A stretch of 64,000 nucleotides of DNA, from IMG/VR virus record IMGVR_UViG_3300035146_000036; one strand, 5' to 3'. The notes beneath the pieces were generated by a model. It had not been told where the DNA came from. It ran no database searches and saw nothing but the letters and a program-made list of their open reading frames with translations. This document shows, piece by piece, positions 2,723 through 59,277 of the stretch. Made by a program: the position numbers and the translations under genes. This DNA is from a virus. Position 1 is the stretch's first letter, and each line of letters starts with the position of its first letter.

Positions 2723-4060
2723 ATGTTAGATACAGTCAAAGATTTTGCAAATAAGTATTTTAAATGTTTTCCTGTATATCTTGTAGGAGGGGGTGTCATA
2801 GATTATCTTTGTGATCGTATTCCAAAAGATTTTGACATAGAAATTTATGGTTTATCAATAGACGAAATTTCAGACATATTAAAATCCAATGGTTTTGACG
2901 TTAATTTTGTTGGGGCAAGTTTTGGAATAATCAAGACAGTATACAAGAATATTGATTTGGATATTTCTGTTCCCAGGGTAGATAATAGAATTGGGAAAGG
3001 TCATAAAGGATTTGATTGTTCTTTTCCTTCCAATATTTCGCCGAAAGAAGCGTCAAGAAGAAGAGATTTGACGATTAATTCAATTTTTTTAGATCTTCAT
3101 ACTTTGGATATTCATGATCCATGGGGAGGAGTTGAGGATTTAAGCAAGGGTGTGCTGAAAGCAACTGATTCAACAACATTTATTGAGGACCCGTTGAGGG
3201 TGCTTAGGGTTATGCAACTGTTAGCAAGGAAGGGAAAAAGTGTTGATTCAGATACTGTTGACTTATGTATTAGTATGGTCGATAGTTTTGTTGATTTGCC
3301 CCAAGAAAGAGTTTTTGAAGAGTTTGTGAAGCTTTTTAGTGCTAGTCGTCCATCAAAAGGGTTAAGGTTTTTGGTAGATTCAAATTGGATTTTTTGTTTT
3401 CCAGAGTTGGAAAGCCTTATTGGATGTAAACAACATCCAGAATGGCATCCAGAAGGAGATGTCTGGGAACATACTCTAAGAGTTGTTGATTGGGCAGCTA
3501 AAGAGAAAGAAAATTTGGATGAGGATTGGCGTTTGGCGTTCATGTTTGGGGCATTGCTACATGACATTGGGAAGCCAGTGGTTGTGTCTGATGATTTTAC
3601 TTGTCATGGCCATGATTTGGCTGGAGAGCCATTGACTAGGTCATTCATGGAAAGGATTACAAGGGATAAGGAACTGATTGATAGAGTTGTTTGTATTGTT
3701 AGAAATCATATGAGATGTGGACAACTTAGTTTTGGCGATGCTAAGAAATCAGGATGGAAGAGATTACATAATGACCTTAGGTTGGATGTTGTAGCATTTC
3801 TTTCTAAGTGTGATTCATTGTCTAGATATAGTGAAGAATATGTATCAGGAATGGAATATGAGCCAAGTATGGTTGCTTTGCAGTATTTTGATGAATTTGG
3901 GAAAAAGCCAATTAAGCCTGTATTGATGGGGAGACATTTGATTGATGCAGGAATGAAGCCTGGCCCAGAGTTTGGTAAGATCTTGGATAGGGCATATGAT
4001 ATCCAAATTGAAGACGGAATTTCTTGTCTAGACACATTGTTGAGGTTGGTTAATGGGTGA
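2723..4060 (+). CDS. cca: CCA-adding tRNA nucleotidyltransferase with HD domain
   Basis: Pol-beta NTase head GGGVIDYL..DFDIEI; RRDLTINS motif; HD motif LLHDIGK; 445 aa. Confidence 0.8.
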   Translation: MLDTVKDFANKYFKCFPVYLVGGGVIDYLCDRIPKDFDIEIYGLSIDEISDILKSNGFDVNFVGASFGIIKTVYKNIDLDISVPRVDNRIGKGHKGFDCSFPSNISPKEASRRRDLTINSIFLDLHTLDIHDPWGGVEDLSKGVLKATDSTTFIEDPLRVLRVMQLLARKGKSVDSDTVDLCISMVDSFVDLPQERVFEEFVKLFSASRPSKGLRFLVDSNWIFCFPELESLIGCKQHPEWHPEGDVWEHTLRVVDWAAKEKENLDEDWRLAFMFGALLHDIGKPVVVSDDFTCHGHDLAGEPLTRSFMERITRDKELIDRVVCIVRNHMRCGQLSFGDAKKSGWKRLHNDLRLDVVAFLSKCDSLSRYSEEYVSGMEYEPSMVALQYFDEFGKKPIKPVLMGRHLIDAGMKPGPEFGKILDRAYDIQIEDGISCLDTLLRLVNG

Positions 4061-4962: not shown

Positions 4963-5148
4963 ATGGGAAAAAGAGATTCTAGGAAAAAGAAAAATAGACC
5001 AAGAAAAAGGTCTAGAGTGTTTGGGTCTAAAAAGCATGAAGAGCAAAATGCTATTCTACAGAGAGCTGCGAAAGATGCAGTGAACGATTATGAGAATGAC
5101 CGTGAATTAGTGTGGGATGACGCAGAGGAACCACTTGATTATTACTAA
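4963..5148 (+). CDS. small basic protein
   Basis: ORF track; K/R-rich N-terminus. Confidence 0.4.
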   Translation: MGKRDSRKKKNRPRKRSRVFGSKKHEEQNAILQRAAKDAVNDYENDRELVWDDAEEPLDYY

Positions 5149-5416: not shown

Positions 5417-5706
5417 TAGAGTGACTGGTTCAAAACAGAAAAGATTTATTTGAATTCATGATTATGGACCATTTGAGATATGTGAATATGAACAAAGATA
5501 TTTTCTTGAAATAGCAATATGGAAATCATCAGAAAAAGTATCAGGATGGTTGCTGCAGTGGGTGAGAAAAGAAGATGGAAGACCTCTTTCGTTCAAAAGA
5601 AGATGTGATGCAAGTAGATATGCAGGAAGACACTTTAAAGACTACGAAAGACAACACTGGACAATATCTTGTGGTAAATAAAGAATAAAATAAAGAATAA
5701 AAAGTG

Positions 5707-6142: not shown

Positions 6143-6355
6143 ATGAGTACTTGGAATGTTGAGAGTATTTTAGAAGAGAAGTTTCATGAGAAGAATGGAA
6201 GAGTTGGTAAGGTGTTTGGGGTAGATATAACAACTAGGTTTTCTAAAGAAGCGCTGGTTGGTATGATAGCTATGTTGGCTGATATGATGAAAGAAGAAGA
6301 TGCAAAAAGACATCATAAGATGATGTCATTTTTTCAGGCAAATAAACATGGGTAG
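6143..6355 (+). CDS. hypothetical protein
   Basis: ORF track; RBS aaggggaaaaattaATG. Confidence 0.5.
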   Translation: MSTWNVESILEEKFHEKNGRVGKVFGVDITTRFSKEALVGMIAMLADMMKEEDAKRHHKMMSFFQANKHG

Positions 6356-6731
6356 AAAGAAGAAAGAAAAAGTTAAAAGTGGTCAGCATCCATTTTGGGC
6401 ATTGTTATCAGAGTTGAAGGCTGAAGAGTTTGATAAAAATGTGACACTTTCTATTGGTGATATGGAGGCTAGATTAATTGCCACTTGGCCAAAAGTTACA
6501 AGAACAGTACTTAGTACACCTTTTGAAAATAAAAATATTCATGAAGCATGGAACTATATTGATTTTTATGCTGGTGGTTGGGCTAAGGCTGCTCTTGTGG
6601 ATGAAGATATAGTATGGAAGAAGTGGCAAGGATTAGCCAATACAAAGTTGATATATCCTGATGGGACATATCCTGATGAAGTTAGAACTGTATTGTTGGC
6701 TAAGGCAGATGCTTTGGCTAAGTTGAAATGA
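6348..6731 (+). CDS. hypothetical protein
   Basis: ORF track. Confidence 0.5.
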   Translation: MGRKKKEKVKSGQHPFWALLSELKAEEFDKNVTLSIGDMEARLIATWPKVTRTVLSTPFENKNIHEAWNYIDFYAGGWAKAALVDEDIVWKKWQGLANTKLIYPDGTYPDEVRTVLLAKADALAKLK

Positions 6732-7067: not shown

Positions 7068-7358
7068 ATGTATAAAGAAAATTGTTGTAGTTTAAACATA
7101 GATGACATGAAGGGTTCTTTTTTGTGTAAGGCTATAGAAGATCTTGGATCTGGTCAGATGAGATGTACTGGGTTTAAGCGTGATGATAAAGAAGGATGTA
7201 GTAATGGATGTAAGTATAATATTATGTTTTCATGTCATAATATTGAGTTGCAATTGAAAACATTAGATGAATTGATAGAAAAATTGGGTATTTTAAAGGG
7301 ACAATTGGTCATAGAATTTGGTAAAAAGATGTATGAGCAAGTAAATGGTAATTCATAA
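7068..7358 (+). CDS. Cys-rich hypothetical protein
   Basis: ORF track; follows palindrome copy 2. Confidence 0.5.
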   Translation: MYKENCCSLNIDDMKGSFLCKAIEDLGSGQMRCTGFKRDDKEGCSNGCKYNIMFSCHNIELQLKTLDELIEKLGILKGQLVIEFGKKMYEQVNGNS

Positions 7359-37104: not shown

Positions 37105-38085
37105 GTGGATTATAGTAAAGAAGCGATAGATAACACTATCTTGAAGGTTAGAGTAGGATCTCATTTATTTGGGACAAATACAGAAGATAGTGATTTAGAT
37201 ATTGAAGGTATTTTTATGCCTCCAATATCTGTTTTATATGGTTTAGGGGAATGCAAGGAGGTTGATTTAAGTGAAGCATCAAAGGATGAAAAGGGTCGGA
37301 ATACATCTGATGCTATAGATTTTAAATTGAGAGAATACAGGACATTTATGCGATTAGCTATTCAGAATAATCCTAATATTTTGAATATTGTTTTTTCAAA
37401 TGATGAAAATGTTATTTTTCAAGACGAATTTGGAGAGCGATTGAGGGGAATGGCAGAGTATTTTCCATATAGAGATGGGTTAAGAAGGTATTATGGATAT
37501 GCTCAATCTCAATTGCAGAAAATGACTATTAAGCCAGATAATTATTCTTATTTAAACAAAGCGTTGGATTTTTTATCTGGATGTAATCAAAAAGCTATTC
37601 TTGTTGATGTAATAAGATCAAAATGTAATCCATTGGCTAGAGTGTTTATTGATAAGGGGCCTGGTAAGCATGTTGTTGTTGCTGATTTGCATTGTGAAAG
37701 GGGACTTCAAGTAGGAAAAGTTGTATCGATGATTAATGGTAGATTAGAAAGGGCTAGTTCAAGAGCTGATAATTGGGAAAGATTTGGATATGATGTGAAA
37801 TTTGCATCGAATTTGATTCAGATTTTAAAGCAAGGCATAGAGCTTGGTAAGACTGGTGTACTTAAATTTCCATTAGGATATAGAGATTTGATTCTTGATA
37901 TAAAGAAAGGCAAGTTTAAGTTATCTGAGGTTGATAATATGGCTACAGATTTGATTGAAGAAATGATTTCTATTATAGAGGGTGAATGTTGTTTGCCAAA
38001 GAAGCCTAGAAGGTTGGAAATTGGAAATTTCACTATTATTGAAGTAAAGAAATGGTGTGACAAGCAGTTTGTTAGTTGTCATTGA
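37105..38085 (+). CDS. Pol-beta superfamily nucleotidyltransferase-fold protein (GS-x11-DxD)
   Basis: VGSHLFGTNTEDSDLDIEGIF matches the NTase motif GS...(D/E)x(D/E) found in CD-NTases and MNT-type enzymes; 326 aa. Confidence 0.5.
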   Translation: MDYSKEAIDNTILKVRVGSHLFGTNTEDSDLDIEGIFMPPISVLYGLGECKEVDLSEASKDEKGRNTSDAIDFKLREYRTFMRLAIQNNPNILNIVFSNDENVIFQDEFGERLRGMAEYFPYRDGLRRYYGYAQSQLQKMTIKPDNYSYLNKALDFLSGCNQKAILVDVIRSKCNPLARVFIDKGPGKHVVVADLHCERGLQVGKVVSMINGRLERASSRADNWERFGYDVKFASNLIQILKQGIELGKTGVLKFPLGYRDLILDIKKGKFKLSEVDNMATDLIEEMISIIEGECCLPKKPRRLEIGNFTIIEVKKWCDKQFVSCH

Positions 38086-44901: not shown

Positions 44902-45216
44902 GTGAAGCATTTAATTTTTACTGCAAAATACAACAGATTGATATCTAATAATGAAATTTTATCTATATTTCATGGTGCTTGTGAAAAAGCTAATGCTCAT
45001 ATTAGGCGTTCTATTGAATATTCATTTTATCCTGGTGGTTTTACAGCGGTAGTTATATTAGCTGAGAGTCACGCATCAATTCATACGTGGCCAGAAACCG
45101 GATTGATAAGGGTTGATTTCTTTTCTTGTTCTATGTCTCCAAATTTTGATGATTTTACAGATTATTTTAGGGAAAGTGGATTTATTGTGAACAAAGTTGA
45201 TATTTTGGAGAGATGA
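44902..45216 (+). CDS. speH: S-adenosylmethionine decarboxylase proenzyme (pyruvoyl-dependent, SpeH/SpeD-type)
   Basis: LAESHASIHTWPE contains the ES self-cleavage site and TWPE hallmark; about 100 aa small archaeal/Bacillus-type form. Confidence 0.7.
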   Translation: MKHLIFTAKYNRLISNNEILSIFHGACEKANAHIRRSIEYSFYPGGFTAVVILAESHASIHTWPETGLIRVDFFSCSMSPNFDDFTDYFRESGFIVNKVDILER

Positions 45217-45258: not shown

Positions 45259-45286
45259 TTGACAAATGCTTTTAGATGAATAAAAT
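45259..45286 (+). promoter_or_regulatory. sigma-70-type promoter TTGACA-N16-TAAAAT
   Basis: aaaaataagTTGACAaatgcttttagatgaaTAAAAT. Confidence 0.55.
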
Positions 45287-45555: not shown

Positions 45556-45627
45556 AGCAAAGAGATGAATTATTTGATTAAGTAGTTTATTTTTGTTCTT
45601 TGAAAATTGAATAAAGTATATGATTTA

Positions 45628-45978
45628 GGGGTCGATTTGGTTTCGACATTTGACTAGATTGATATTATGCATGTTCCGCTTTGGGTATTCAGCGGATTAA
45701 AAAGAATGCTTGAATACAATCGTCAGACATAACGATAGCCAAGTTTGGGCTGAAGCTGCCTAAACCGTCCAAGTGCTGATTGCCTGTGTAGGTATAAGGG
45801 CGTCATTTTTACAGGATAGTGACCATTTTTCATGGGAAATGGTGAGCGAAAATGACCATGAAGAATTTGTATGTAGTTGTCTATCATTGCATGCAAATTA
45901 TTTAGATAGACTAAACATGTGAAGATTAATATTGAGATGTCTAAATGGACTGGGGTTCGATTCCCCACGACTCCAACT
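45628..45978 (+). ncRNA. ssrA: tmRNA (ssrA-like), tag approx (A)NDSQVWAEAA
   Basis: 5' GGGGUCGAUUUGGUUUCGAC matches the tmRNA 5' consensus GGGGnnGAUUnnGGnUUCGAC; 3' T-arm CUGGGGUUCGAUUCCCCA + acceptor CGACUCC pairing with 5' GGGGUCG; tag ORF aac gat agc caa gtt tgg gct gaa gct gcc TAA at 45731-45763, about 100 nt from the 5' end as in E. coli (ANDENYALAA); CCA not encoded. Confidence 0.75.
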
Positions 45979-45982
45979 ATAT

Positions 45983-46192
45983 GGGAATGATGTGTGGTGG
46001 GACACACTGGAAATGGTCAACGAGGCTCTTCAAGTAAGTTGTAAGATATTTATACCTAACCGCATAGGCGAATGATATCTTATGGGTTAATACTGAACAA
46101 AGATGCGTTCCAAGCTTTCATGATTTATCTGGCGAGATTTATTGTGTAAAGATTCCATAAACTCGTTTCCGGTTCGAATCCGGACATTCCCC
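45983..46192 (+). ncRNA. tRNA-like gene with ~130-nt insertion (interrupted tRNA / structured RNA)
   Basis: Perfect 7-bp acceptor GGGAATG/CATTCCC; D-arm GTGT-GGTGGGAC-ACAC; perfect T-arm TCCGG-TTCGAAT-CCGGA; halves are 210 nt apart. Confidence 0.3.
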
Positions 46193-46202
46193 TAGTAATA
46201 TT

Positions 46203-46325
46203 GGATACTGTATGTGTCAGGTGGCACAGTTCTGCATGGAGAACTTCTTGAGACAAATAACCTATAACCAGTGAGTGCTGATCAAAAAATGTCAAAGAGA
46301 AATGGTTCGATACCAGCAGTATCCT
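46203..46325 (+). ncRNA. tRNA-like element (8-bp terminal stem, D-arm-like, weak T-arm)
   Basis: GGATACTG...CAGTATCC terminal helix; TGTG-TCAGGTGG-CACA D-arm; GGTTCGATACC T-loop-like; 123 nt, non-canonical. Confidence 0.2.
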
Positions 46326-46366
46326 AAAATTTTAAAAATATTTTTAATATATTAGGAGATATAAAA

Positions 46367-46555
46367 ATGGATAAGAAAACAGCATGCAAGACGGTCGTGT
46401 TGCATCTATGTGATGAACCATATAAAGAATGTGATTTTTATGTAGATGACCATATGAGGTGTAAGTATAGGGGATATGGAGATGGAAGATGCTTATGTGA
46501 AGAAGCATGGATAGAGAATATAAAAAAGGAAAATAGTAAACCCAAAGATGGCTAA
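46367..46555 (+). CDS. small Cys-rich protein
   Basis: ORF track; RBS ttaggagatataaaaATG. Confidence 0.5.
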   Translation: MDKKTACKTVVLHLCDEPYKECDFYVDDHMRCKYRGYGDGRCLCEEAWIENIKKENSKPKDG

Positions 46556-46675
46556 TTTAAGGGTTATAGATGAATGGCTTTATATTGAAGTGTTCGAAGC
46601 AGTGGCAAAATGAACACGAAAAAAAGATCTGCCATTGAGGAATTTTCCATGTTTGCCTTTAAAAAAACATGGTTA

Positions 46676-46750
46676 TCGGGATGTAGCGCAGTCTGGTTAG
46701 CGCACTTGATTTGGGGTCAAGGGGTCATAGGTTCGAATCCTATCATTCCG
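46676..46750 (+). tRNA. tRNA-Pro (anticodon UGG)
   Basis: Acceptor CGGGATG/CATTCCG (C1-G72 as in bacterial tRNA-Pro), D-arm GCGC-AGTCTGGTTA-GCGC, anticodon arm CTTGA-TTTGGGG-TCAAG (UGG), T-arm ATAGG-TTCGAAT-CCTAT, discriminator A, no encoded CCA. Confidence 0.8.
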
Positions 46751-47049
46751 ACGAGGAGCAGCCTCAAAACTGCAATATAGGTGAAAGTCCTTAAGGATGT
46801 TAACGATGTGAGAACATTTAAGTGTTGTTTTCCTCTGGCGAATTGGCTAAGTCATGAAACCACAAGGCATCCTTGCCACTGTTGCTGTGCAGTATCACAG
46901 TGTCTATGTCCTATAATCAGTTTGTTTTAGAAGACGTTCTAGACAAAGATGAATAAGGAGTAGACCGGGTTTGCTGATTGTCCGAGAAACGAATTAGACC
47001 TATATGGAGTGAGCCATACAGCTTGGTGCGATGCCAGGCATTTAAATAT

Positions 47050-47209
47050 TGGCCAATGGCGGAAAGGTATACGCATCAGAAGTGACCGGTTGTTGTCAGA
47101 TTAGCTGTTTGATATACAGAAAGGGTCCCAGCCATGTATAGTTATATATATGGTAAAAGTATGATATTAGGGTGCACACTAATTGTAGGTTCGAATCCTA
47201 CTTGGCCAA
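47050..47209 (+). ncRNA. tRNA-like gene with ~100-nt insertion
   Basis: Perfect acceptor TGGCCAA/TTGGCCA, T-arm GTAGG-TTCGAAT-CCTAC, D-arm-like GCG-GAAAGGTATA-CGC; anticodon arm not resolvable. Confidence 0.3.
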
Positions 47210-47263
47210 CTGAAAATAGATATATTGTAAGGAAATGAAGAAATAGGTAGATTAGGACATTTT

Positions 47264-59205: not shown

Positions 59206-59277
59206 CGGGATGTGTTGCTCCATTCAATGGGGTGTGGATTGAAACAGTGGTAGTATAGTATTGTGACCAATTGTTAA

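Follow-up and report, generated by a model that had tools for sequence, protein, structure and literature searches.

Clusters of tRNA genes in phage genomes are usually read as a codon supply or as anti-defence spare parts. Phage T4 RNAC and RNAD have had no functional explanation for decades. The mycobacteriophage DS6A carries a tmRNA-like gene that lacks both a coding sequence and a tag and that inhibits the host tmRNA (PMC11915505). Allo-tRNAs, found in bacteria and marked by a 9/3 acceptor branch, a long variable arm and G73 or U73, include translationally inactive members that have been proposed as regulatory non-coding RNAs; irregular or inactive allo-tRNA pseudogenes are on record as well, and 8/4-type serine and histidine tRNAs have been reported from phages (Mukai et al. 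2017, PMC5389517).

The window, by which we mean the whole 64,000-nt stretch of DNA that was analysed, belongs to a tailed phage and contains an RNA island (Table 1) that can be set beside these systems. At least four structured RNAs (E1, E2, E3 and gapB) are maintained in one phage lineage and are matched by no Rfam model, and one of the four is supported by covariation to a degree seen in curated families. The structures exist, are conserved and covary, without decodable anticodon loops, intron signatures or an encoded CCA. The reading that we favour, and hold to be somewhat probable, is that the island is a tRNA-type cluster composed of a tmRNA, one ordinary tRNA and the non-decoding tRNA mimics E1-E3, which are matured by tRNA-processing enzymes.

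Table 1. Features of the RNA island and the associated nucleotidyltransferase gene, in window coordinates
Feature	Position	Strand	Description and basis
Class II tRNA nucleotidyltransferase, predicted CCA-adding type, with HD domain	2723-4060	+	Pfam, PHROGs
RNA island	45628-47209	+	tmRNA, E1, E2, 62-aa ORF, tRNA-Pro(UGG), gapB, E3
tmRNA, standard one-piece	45628-45975/8	+	Rfam RF00023, ARAGORN
tmRNA tag reading frame	45722-45763	+	ARAGORN; gene positions 95-136 are coding
E1, tRNA-framed structured RNA	45983-46192	+	210 nt, ~133 nt extra; frame and covariation
E2, allo-tRNA/tRNA-Sec-like frame	46203-46325	+	123 nt, ~57-nt extra arm
Small protein gene	46367-46555	+	62 aa, Cys-rich, RBS AGGAGA; ORF list
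tRNA-Pro(UGG), canonical	46677-46751	+	Rfam RF00005 (65.9 bits), ARAGORN; no encoded CCA
gapB, conserved ~298-nt structured non-coding element	46752-47049	+	Conservation, covariation
E3, tRNA-Leu-framed RNA	47050-47209	+	160 nt, ~72-90 nt extra; fold, ARAGORN intron mode

The motif GGTTCGA occurs six times in the 64-kb window, against 2.2 copies expected window-wide, and five of the six copies lie between 45954 and 47194, in agreement with an earlier sequence-only reading that had reported five such T-arm signatures in the island. Neighbouring genes are spaced by 7-10 nt or abut directly. The same reading had described the stretch as lacking protein ORFs, which is wrong: the 62-aa gene is conserved in its cysteines, exists in relatives as 66-aa versions that differ by an in-frame four-codon indel, occurs in roughly half of the related islands, with a gene call in both L041 and L044, and matches no Pfam family. 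A promoter scan returned a single good sigma-70-like site (45259-45286), not above shuffle expectation, and the promoter/terminator scan, whose results did not exceed shuffle expectation, gave no terminators within the island.

The conventional members of the island are readily recognized. The tmRNA (45628-45975) aligns full-length to RF00023, over model positions 1-374, with 110.3 bits (E 3e-42, gathering score 47); orthologues, which score 112-128 bits on the same model, are present in L002, L004, L009, L012, L041, L042 and L044. Its acceptor stem, GGGGUCG/CGACUCC, carries G3.U70 and is followed by discriminator A73, the alanine identity, with no encoded CCA. The tag is VRHNDSQVWAEAA-stop in the window and AKNNYPDLAEAA-stop in the L002 lineage, and its C-terminal AEAA is kept between lineages whose nucleotide identity is 74%. 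Both the phage tmRNA with a tag ORF and the canonical tRNA-Pro(UGG) named by the sequence-only reading are thus borne out by covariance models and ARAGORN, and the tRNA-Pro is the only part of the island with a match in INPHARED, namely to phage tRNA-Pro genes. The reported absence of an encoded 3' CCA holds for all five RNAs, in the window and in every related phage. The accompanying claim of a phage-encoded CCA-adding enzyme likewise agrees with the domains of a gene product encoded 42 kb upstream, which matches the PolyA_pol head (60 bits), PolyA_pol_RNAbd (31 bits) and HD (34 bits) in Pfam and the tRNA nucleotidyltransferase family phrog_2244 (E 2e-59) in PHROGs. By family this is a class II nucleotidyltransferase of the CCA-adding type, a predicted specificity that family membership does not separate from poly(A) or CC-/A-adding activity. 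No SmpB gene is found among the window ORFs of ≥100 aa searched against Pfam and PHROGs. More broadly, the suggested manipulation of ribosome rescue and host translation by the phage is a reasonable hypothesis.

Between these genes lie the elements that had been described as three interrupted tRNA-like genes with perfect stems. The frames themselves stand, with paired acceptor, D-arm and T-arm in each; E2 departs from the description, having a 9-bp acceptor with a 3-bp T-stem and its extra sequence in the variable arm. E1 provides the deepest comparison. Specifically, its frame consists of a 7-bp acceptor, a 5-bp D-stem and a 5-bp T-arm with loop UUCGAAU, followed by C at N73, and all 28 frame pairs are kept in five variants from three lineages, seven of them with compensatory changes and none broken. 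Comparative pairing defines helix S1 (46008-46012 with 46153-46157) and helix S2 (46019-46024 with 46162-46167), which cross to form a pseudoknot at the tRNA-like junction, and the junction sequence AUGGUC (46013-46018) is invariant. Two hairpins, the long H1 and H2, lie in the core of ~128 nt. At a comparative depth of three lineages only, this core has 33 consensus pairs with 92% pairing; 10 of the pairs are compensatory, compared with 0-3 when the register is shifted. Evidence for the structure also comes from RNAalifold. Because about 61 base pairs are conserved across three lineages, 17 of them with compensatory changes, E1 is, on this comparative evidence, a real structured RNA.

The position of E1, 7 nt downstream of the tmRNA in both lineages, and its tRNA-like domain closing a pseudoknotted body would fit a tmRNA-derived, tag-less paralogue that competes with the host tmRNA/SmpB or with the phage tmRNA, for which DS6A sets a precedent (PMC11915505), and its 5' end is tmRNA-like enough to enter a 19.9-bit tmRNA_permuted alignment. 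That alignment spans the tmRNA 3' end as well as the E1 5' end and, as a match, is an adjacency artefact that bridges the two; E1 alone matches no tmRNA model, and Rfam searches from the window down to short slices with permissive filters gave it no family of its own. Moreover, E1 has G3-C70 instead of G3.U70, its discriminator is C or U by lineage instead of A, and its D-stem is real and covarying, which that of tmRNA is not. Indels between lineages leave no reading frame conserved, and E1 was rejected as a second tagged tmRNA for that reason. A DS6A-like paralogue is, in our estimate, quite unlikely.

Intron-containing tRNAs, the first of two explanations offered by the sequence-only reading, would require that the inserts of E1-E3 be excised, whether autocatalytically or by an enzyme of phage or host origin, to leave decoding tRNAs; for E1, the product would be a tRNA with anticodon GGU. 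ARAGORN in its intron and tmRNA modes calls the tmRNA and, in intron mode, recognizes the E1 and E3 frames with boundaries that match the manual parse, missing E2. A single E1 parse even fits all lineages, with loop A-U-GGU-R-N and the insert after U36, and yields U33, purine 37 and a U at -1 as in group I 5' splice sites, within an invariant AUGGUC junction. A consistent GGU parse is, however, expected fairly often by chance, and the anticodons and insertion points that ARAGORN assigns vary among E1 orthologues, giving Phe(AAA), His(GUG) and Ile(AAU). The last base of the E1 insert is A, U or G by lineage, so that no omega-G is conserved, and in the covarying helix S2 the 5' end of that insert is paired with the variable region. 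E2 carries its additional nucleotides in the variable arm, and its 6-nt central loop is itself variable; a canonical anticodon loop is absent throughout, with 80-150 nt in its place in E1 and E3.

Model searches point in the same direction. On short slices (357-467 nt) with permissive filters, no group I or II intron family in Rfam, RF00028 included, matched at E<=10, RF00005 matched none of E1, E2 and E3 at E<=10 on short slices, and ARAGORN in default mode calls none of the three. Neither a splicing endonuclease nor an RNA ligase appears among the window ORFs of ≥100 aa in Pfam or PHROGs. The inserts measure 57-138 nt; the smallest known group I intron is about 205 nt. In intron-form tmRNA genes, the introns average 414 bp (PMC11915505). 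Without a match to intron or tRNA models, with disagreeing orthologue anticodons and with the E2 arm in the wrong place, the intron explanation is not supported, and we consider it improbable. The second explanation, other tRNA-derived structured RNAs, is supported by conserved, covarying structure and the lack of an intron signature.

E2 extends this picture to a different frame. Its 9-bp acceptor (GGAUACUGU/GCAGUAUCC) and 3-bp T-stem (UGG/CCA) form the 12-bp branch in the 9/3 geometry of allo-tRNAs, which it also resembles in its 6-bp D-stem with tetraloop (UGUGUC-AGGU-GGCACA), its long variable arm and U73. The central stem-loop departs from that pattern: a 5-bp stem closes a loop of 6 nt rather than 7, which varies among close relatives (GCAUGG, with C to A giving GAAUGG in L009), and E2 has no tRNA-Sec match at E<=10, whereas allo-tRNAs were discovered through such scores. 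Rfam on short slices, with tRNA-Sec included and at E<=10, and ARAGORN in every mode all miss it. The fold has an MFE z of -3.0, and in a comparison that spans one lineage the core is invariant, the ninth acceptor pair changes from U.G to U-A, a hairpin pair in the ~57-nt arm runs from C-G through U.G to U-A, and all substitutions are either pairing-neutral or in loops. The arm tip takes a 40-nt insertion in L012 and L041, so that the variable arm covers 57-97 nt overall.

E3 is framed as a leucine tRNA. It combines a 7-bp acceptor, U8, a 5-bp T-arm and A73 with a Leu-type D-arm (GCGG-AAAGGUAUA-CGC) that contains A14 and a class-II-like variable hairpin (AUUAG..CUAAU), while its anticodon arm has grown to ~90 nt. 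Its sequence is 99.4-100% identical in five relatives, against 95-97% for the helicase gene and 94-97% for neighbouring genes, a conservation that exceeds that of its flanks. L002 carries two paralogous E3-type genes, E3a and E3b, both with A73; all three E3-type genes have the tRNA-Leu identity set of U8, GCGG-A14 and A73, and the E3a copy also has G3.U70. The best Rfam match of E3 is a weak tRNA-Sec hit (19.5 bits), with nothing else. Leucine identity resides in A73 and A14, and leucylation does not need the anticodon arm (PMC9976931).

The fourth RNA, gapB, was overlooked by the sequence-only reading. It starts directly 3' of a tRNA in every relative and, in the window's lineage, ends exactly where E3 begins. 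Identity in L002/L003 is 72%, a conservation level like that of the tmRNA. The 84-pair consensus is 97.8% paired and includes 4 compensatory pairs; shuffles gave 0.7 and reached that count in 0 of 500 cases, and controls with a shifted register gave 0-1. Indels are confined to one hairpin tip and do not keep a reading frame, and gapB was therefore rejected as coding. Rfam, at gathering and permissive thresholds and from the window to short slices, has no match for it. An GGUGAAAGUCC motif hinted at CR-I/P4 of RNase P RNA; this identity was rejected, with no RNase P model match and the putative P4 partner disrupted in L012. The flanking tRNA-like structures would free gapB as a separate RNA.

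Rfam searches of the window, a 2-kb slice and two short slices (357-467 nt), with gathering as well as permissive thresholds, returned nothing for E1, E2, E3 and gapB beyond the 19.9-bit tmRNA_permuted and 19.5-bit tRNA-Sec matches. Across the INPHARED, IMG/VR, metagenome and GTDB scans, the elements were seen in one narrow phage clade only: pattern scans of IMG/VR gave no homologues beyond the same four contigs, a metagenome scan added two relatives (L009 and L012), a GTDB scan with a 15-mer gave >120 chance matches of which nhmmer confirmed none, a tmRNA 5' motif scan gave 14 chance matches, all without a tmRNA, and the island is absent from relatives whose helicase is <=68% identical. The paper on AcrIIIA1 and t(m)RNA fragments has no bearing on the island.

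Within the clade the island is mosaic. E2 and E3 are not essential, because the L002 lineage lacks E2 and L012 has lost E3 by deletion. The layout seen in the window is explained by a deletion that joined the identical T-arms of a tRNA-Pro and a tRNA-Leu gene. Such losses and rearrangements, together with the existence of irregular or inactive allo-tRNA pseudogenes, are what one would expect if the elements were functionless, decaying tRNA pseudogenes or recombination scars. The 17 compensatory pairs of E1 with no broken frame pair, the 99.4-100% identity of E3 amid neighbours at 94-97% and the perfect acceptor stems of every element argue against decay, which we judge highly unlikely. Nor are the inserts repeated elements: they have no other copies and no extended complementarity anywhere in the window, and an origin by mobile insertion was rejected for want of other copies.

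From these features, we infer how E1-E3 would be processed and charged and what they would target. All three retain the tRNA half that processing enzymes would see, namely the 12-bp acceptor/T-arm helix and the D-loop/T-loop elbow. RNase P would cut their 5' ends, 3' trimming and the phage CCA-adding enzyme would complete their 3' ends, and the tRNA frame would give them stability. Where a tRNA has its anticodon or variable region, these RNAs have a larger folded domain that is specific to the lineage and unable to read codons; its probable partner would be a factor of the host or the phage, for example a synthetase, an elongation or rescue factor, a tRNA-directed nuclease or a tRNA-modifying enzyme. 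The synthetases for alanine, serine and leucine do not require the anticodon. The frames of the tmRNA, E2 and E3 correspond to these identities, with G3.U70 for alanine (also in E3a of L002), a long variable arm and U73 for serine or allo-tRNA, and A73 and A14 for leucine. Because their frames match anticodon-independent identities, E2 and E3 may be aminoacylated like tmRNA, whereas E1, by its G3-C70 and varying discriminator, matches none of them.

The tRNA frames could instead be mere processing or stability scaffolds around an embedded small RNA or aptamer that acts without charging or factor binding. The structured, covarying cores, a frame type that differs by element, an E2 arm tip that accepts 40 nt and the tRNA-like structures on both sides of gapB are all compatible with such a role. 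Identity nucleotides that processing does not need are nevertheless kept: U8, A14 and A73 recur in all three E3-type genes despite their divergence, and E3a retains G3.U70. The inserts also offer neither extended complementarity nor other copies in the window; a purely scaffolding function seems unlikely to us. The non-decoding mimics of the favoured reading could also form a phage toolkit, in which aminoacylatable mimics built on the alanine, serine and leucine identities would use expanded, pseudoknotted domains to reach ribosomes, synthetases or defence nucleases that target tRNAs, with E1 as a tag-less tmRNA relative and with tRNA punctuation releasing gapB, one more large RNA. This version is speculative and rather unlikely; if true, a toolkit of charged mimics would constitute a new class of trans-acting modulators of translation or defence.

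At minimum, E1, E2, E3 and gapB are candidates for new RNA families, and RNAs of the E1-E3 type are overlooked by default tRNA finders. If charged, or if they bind factors of translation or defence, these RNAs would broaden the known viral tRNA mimicry in bacteria and would represent natural cases of the 'tRNA scaffold' of RNA engineering. Among known systems, bacterial tRNAs with group I introns, such as the cyanobacterial tRNA-Leu(UAA), and intron-form tmRNA genes likewise have tRNA halves split in or near the anticodon loop, and the E3 frame is also of the leucine type; group I introns, however, follow U(-1)/omega-G rules, match RF00028 and are larger (from ~205 nt), which the inserts of E1-E3 do not and are not. 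With tmRNA and the DS6A element, the new RNAs share a tRNA-like domain that closes a large pseudoknotted body and, by prediction, a charging identity independent of an anticodon. They differ from these in having real D-stems, no G3.U70 (E3a of L002 excepted), no tag frame and no tmRNA match, and in size, the DS6A element measuring ~65 nt compared with 210 nt for E1, 123 nt for E2 and 160 nt for E3.

The comparison with phage T4 is one of architecture only, as rnaC/rnaD and the island elements share no homology past an 11-nt T-loop consensus. RNAC has no D-arm, and its acceptor is not a perfect 7-bp stem, whereas the frames of E1-E3 are complete and E1 is pseudoknotted. The likeness lies in layout and design: RNAC and RNAD are stable RNAs (species 1 and 2) at the end of a tRNA cluster and, like E1-E3, lie a few nucleotides from a tRNA; RNAC encloses a non-tRNA body between a canonical T-arm (CCGGG-UUCGAAU-CCCGG) and a terminal stem, as the island elements do; and its tRNA-Sec score of 17.5 bits is similarly weak to the 19.5 bits of E3. 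In the favoured reading, E1-E3 are non-decoding tRNA mimics analogous to T4 RNAC.

The new comparative data indicate that, next to ordinary components, the RNA island of this phage (tmRNA through E3) holds four unclassified structured RNAs; they occur only in a narrow clade and are new forms of a kind already known, the irregular tRNA-like RNAs of tRNA clusters. Three of them, E1, E2 and E3, keep the acceptor, D and T arms of a tRNA with extra sequence between the halves, and the fourth, gapB, is a conserved structured element of its own that the sequence-only reading had omitted. By sequence comparison, the evidence is strong only for E1. Phage tmRNAs, tRNAs and CCA enzymes are already known, which makes that part ordinary. 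The sequence-only reading largely held up: its tmRNA with tag ORF, canonical tRNA-Pro(UGG), three interrupted tRNA-like elements (now E1-E3) and encoded CCA-adding enzyme were all recovered, and an encoded 3' CCA is, as it had stated, missing after all five genes (tmRNA, tRNA-Pro, E1-E3), in the window and in every relative. Its five GGTTCGA T-arm signatures lie within 1.3 kb and make up five of the six copies in the 64-kb window, where 2.2 are expected. A custom scan, which required a T-arm, a 3' acceptor strand after it and, at most 450 nt upstream, a perfect 5' partner of that strand, returned, with the canonical UUCGA T-loop, the island elements only, block-shuffled windows giving 0-3 loose matches. 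The assertion that the stretch lacks protein ORFs, by contrast, failed, as a real small gene lies within it. The phage tmRNA tags end in AEAA in both lineages (WAEAA, window 45722-45763; LAEAA, 5106-5144 of the distant relative L002), not in the usual LAA-type sequence, which might, speculatively, mean tagging without ClpXP-type degradation.

Features of the island, the CCA-adding enzyme gene and recurrent elements in related phage sequences (L numbers)
Feature	Location	Strand	Remarks
CCA-adding type tRNA nucleotidyltransferase	2723-4060	+	445 aa; PolyA_pol head, RNA-binding and HD domains; phage tRNA nucleotidyltransferase family match
Standard one-piece tmRNA	45628-45975/8	+	ARAGORN and Rfam agree; 110.3 bits (threshold 47); tag VRHNDSQVWAEAA*
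E1	45983-46192	+	fully paired acceptor stem
E2	46203-46325	+	fully paired acceptor stem
Small gene	46367-46555	+	62 aa; cysteines conserved; in-frame 4-codon indel separates relatives
tRNA-Pro(UGG)	46677-46751	+	ARAGORN and Rfam agree; 65.9 bits
gapB	46752-47049	+	conserved structured element
E3	47050-47209	+	fully paired acceptor stem
'tRNA-Leu(UAA)'	L004 4213-4288; L009 14529-14604; L041 9570-9645; L042 9028-9103; L044 9529-9604		
~43-nt motif	window 59207-59248; L012 12070-12118; L004 4162-4199; L042 8977-9014		

All sizeable ORFs of the window lie on the + strand. It encodes a portal protein, head maturation protease, major head protein and terminase and thus derives from a tailed phage, whose genome is large, since the helicase adjoining the island is carried by contigs 160-190 kb long. 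Immediately upstream of the CCA-adding enzyme gene lies that of a phage sigma factor (2001-2636; sigma-70 regions 3 and 4). Further window genes encode an RlaP-type 'RNA repair pathway' nucleotidyltransferase (37105-38085; 59 bits), an 884-aa protein with a major-vault-protein shoulder domain (30675-33329; Pfam MVP_shoulder, 85 bits) and a weak Vault_3 repeat, which has a homologue in the relative L024 (11861-14482), and, between helicase and island, an S-adenosylmethionine decarboxylase-like protein (44902-45216; Pfam AdoMet_dc, 73 bits) that is kept in relatives.

Relatives were sought via the flanking SNF2 helicase, and the same island was recovered in IMG/VR, JGI, ENA, NCBI and Logan contigs. 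They fall into a window-like lineage (L004, L009, L012, L041, L042, L044; helicase gene 95-97% identical to the window's) and a more distant one (L002/L003; helicase 80% identical in protein, RNAs 70-75% in nucleotides). The general order is tmRNA - E1 - E2 - (small ORF) - tRNA-Pro - (ORFs - tRNA-Leu(UAA)) - gapB - E3. The window is without the segment between the identical T-arms of tRNA-Pro and tRNA-Leu, and its missing tRNA-Leu(UAA) is consistent with deletion by recombination between these arms. In relatives, this 76-nt 'tRNA-Leu(UAA)' is class-I-shaped, with U73, the T-arm of tRNA-Pro and no long variable arm. The island is not at this position in relatives with at most 68% helicase identity, and no copy of E1 or gapB turned up in INPHARED, the remaining IMG/VR or the GTDB matches. 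L024 (66% helicase identity) has, in the gene-free gap after its helicase, a ~260-nt element (6268-6525) closed by a 22-bp stem, which contains an internal repeat as well as two T-arm motifs of canonical form; it is called neither by Rfam nor by ARAGORN with default settings, and in intron mode ARAGORN assigns part of it to tRNA-Leu(CAA). The island of L002 holds two further structured candidates: at 5598-5663 a long, perfectly paired hairpin that lies between E1 and the E3-type gene E3a, and at 7086-7170 an element of 85 nt that has a terminal stem of 8-9 bp and a GGGG/CCCC hairpin and lacks a T-loop. Related phages also encode the tRNA-related Thg1, QueC and SpoU methylase (L021 20462-21232, 6240-6815; L019 1893-2468), and several helicase homologues (P0020/P0040/P0044) carry LAGLIDADG or HNH intein-like insertions.

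For E1, each helix was extracted from each of five variants from three lineages. All 28 base pairs of the frame (7 in the acceptor, 5 in D, 5 and 6 in the crossing helices S1 and S2, 5 in T) are kept and none is broken, with compensatory double changes in seven. Specifically, acceptor pair 4 is A-U, G.U or G-C, G-C gives way to A-U at acceptor pair 7 and at the first pair of the D-stem, two T-stem pairs change, S1 passes from UGGAA/UUCCA to CGGAA/UUCCG and S2 from AACGAG/CUCGUU to AGCGAG/CUCGCU. As S1 and S2 cross, either they form a pseudoknot at the junction or they are alternative helices; the six junction nucleotides, AUGGUC, are invariant. The core of 128-133 nt consists of a long hairpin, H1, with a different sequence in each of the three lineages, plus another hairpin, H2; its 33 consensus pairs are 92% paired, and 10 of them are compensatory, as opposed to 0-3 when the register is shifted by 1-3 nt. 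The window lineage has C as discriminator and L002 has U, pair 3-70 is G-C, and E1 has no conserved reading frame.

The sequence-only reading had proposed that E1-E3 may be intron-containing tRNAs or other tRNA-derived structured RNAs. The ARAGORN intron-mode check that it suggested gave a divided answer: the frames of E1 and E3 are recognised, but the 7-nt loop is built from different pieces in each orthologue, so that E1 is called Phe(AAA), His(GUG) or Ile(AAU), the insertion being placed at 30/31, 32/33 or 35, and E2 is never found. A manual parse of E1 as A-U-GGU-R-N, with the insert after U36, is consistent across all lineages; however, the insert ends in A, U or G, and its start pairs with the variable region as the covarying helix S2. 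Rfam, even on slices of 357-467 nt, yields no tRNA, tmRNA, group I, group II or RNase P match for E1, E2, E3 or gapB, and the scanned window ORFs of at least 100 aa include no splicing endonuclease or RNA ligase. On these grounds introns are an improbable explanation, and the other option, tRNA-derived structured RNAs, is supported.

In the E2 fold, a single linker nucleotide separates the 9-bp acceptor stem from a 6-bp D-stem, whose tetraloop is AGGU; then come a 5-bp hairpin closing a loop of 6 nt, an extra arm of ~57 nt and a 3-bp T-stem with loop UUCGAUA, and position 73 is U. With this fold, E2 shares with allo-tRNAs their defining 9/3 geometry and a tRNA-Sec-like D-arm. Its core is unchanged in six variants, among which the ninth acceptor pair changes from U.G to U-A, the small arm hairpin shows C-G, U.G and U-A, and the central loop varies from GCAUGG to GAAUGG; L012 and L041 have a 40-nt insertion at the arm tip, and the L002 lineage is missing E2. 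A recurrent ~43-nt motif (hairpin GUCGCC..GGGGCG, then UGGAUUGAAAC) occurs after the major head gene just 5' of a strong terminator, upstream of the relatives' tRNA-Leu(UAA) and in the E2 variable-arm tip of L012/L041; the motif may serve as a hairpin for processing or regulation, or it may be a small mobile element. E3 has the frame of tRNA-Leu: U8 and A73 are present, A14 lies in the D-arm GCGG-AAAGGUAUA-CGC, the T-arm has 5 bp, and ~90 nt separate the D-arm from a variable hairpin that is class-II-like. It is 99.4-100% identical within the window lineage, versus 94-99% for the adjacent gapB and 95-97% for the helicase gene, is precisely deleted in L012 and has two paralogous counterparts in L002 (195 and 108 nt; A73 in both, G3.U70 in one). 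gapB (~298 nt), without an Rfam family match, always starts at the base right after a tRNA discriminator and is 72% conserved between lineages (tmRNA, 74%), with its indels located at the tip of a single hairpin (two relatives have +4 and +11 nt; hairpin absent in L002). Four of its 84 pairs are compensatory, versus 0.7 in shuffles (0/500) and 0-1 in shifted controls, which is modest support because the structure came from the same sequences.

Taken together, we read E1-E3 as non-decoding tRNA mimics that would be matured, and possibly charged, by the tRNA machinery, while their expanded domains would supply specificity. The proposed maturation follows established tRNA biology, and the 12-bp acceptor branch is discussed in PMC5389517. 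Ala, Ser and Leu are the anticodon-independent tRNA identities, and the frames of the tmRNA, E2 and E3 correspond to them, respectively. For Leu, identity lies in A73 and A14, and the anticodon arm is dispensable for aminoacylation (review, PMC9976931); in allo-tRNAs, the V-arm and G73/U73 point to SerRS (PMC5389517). Some allo-tRNAs do not work in translation, and a role as regulatory RNAs has been proposed for these (PMC5389517). The nearest precedents are T4 RNAC/RNAD, whose function is unknown, and the tmRNA-like gene of phage DS6A, which has no tag (PMC11915505). RNAC/RNAD share the genomic setting of E1-E3, and in RNAC a canonical T-arm surrounds a non-tRNA body.
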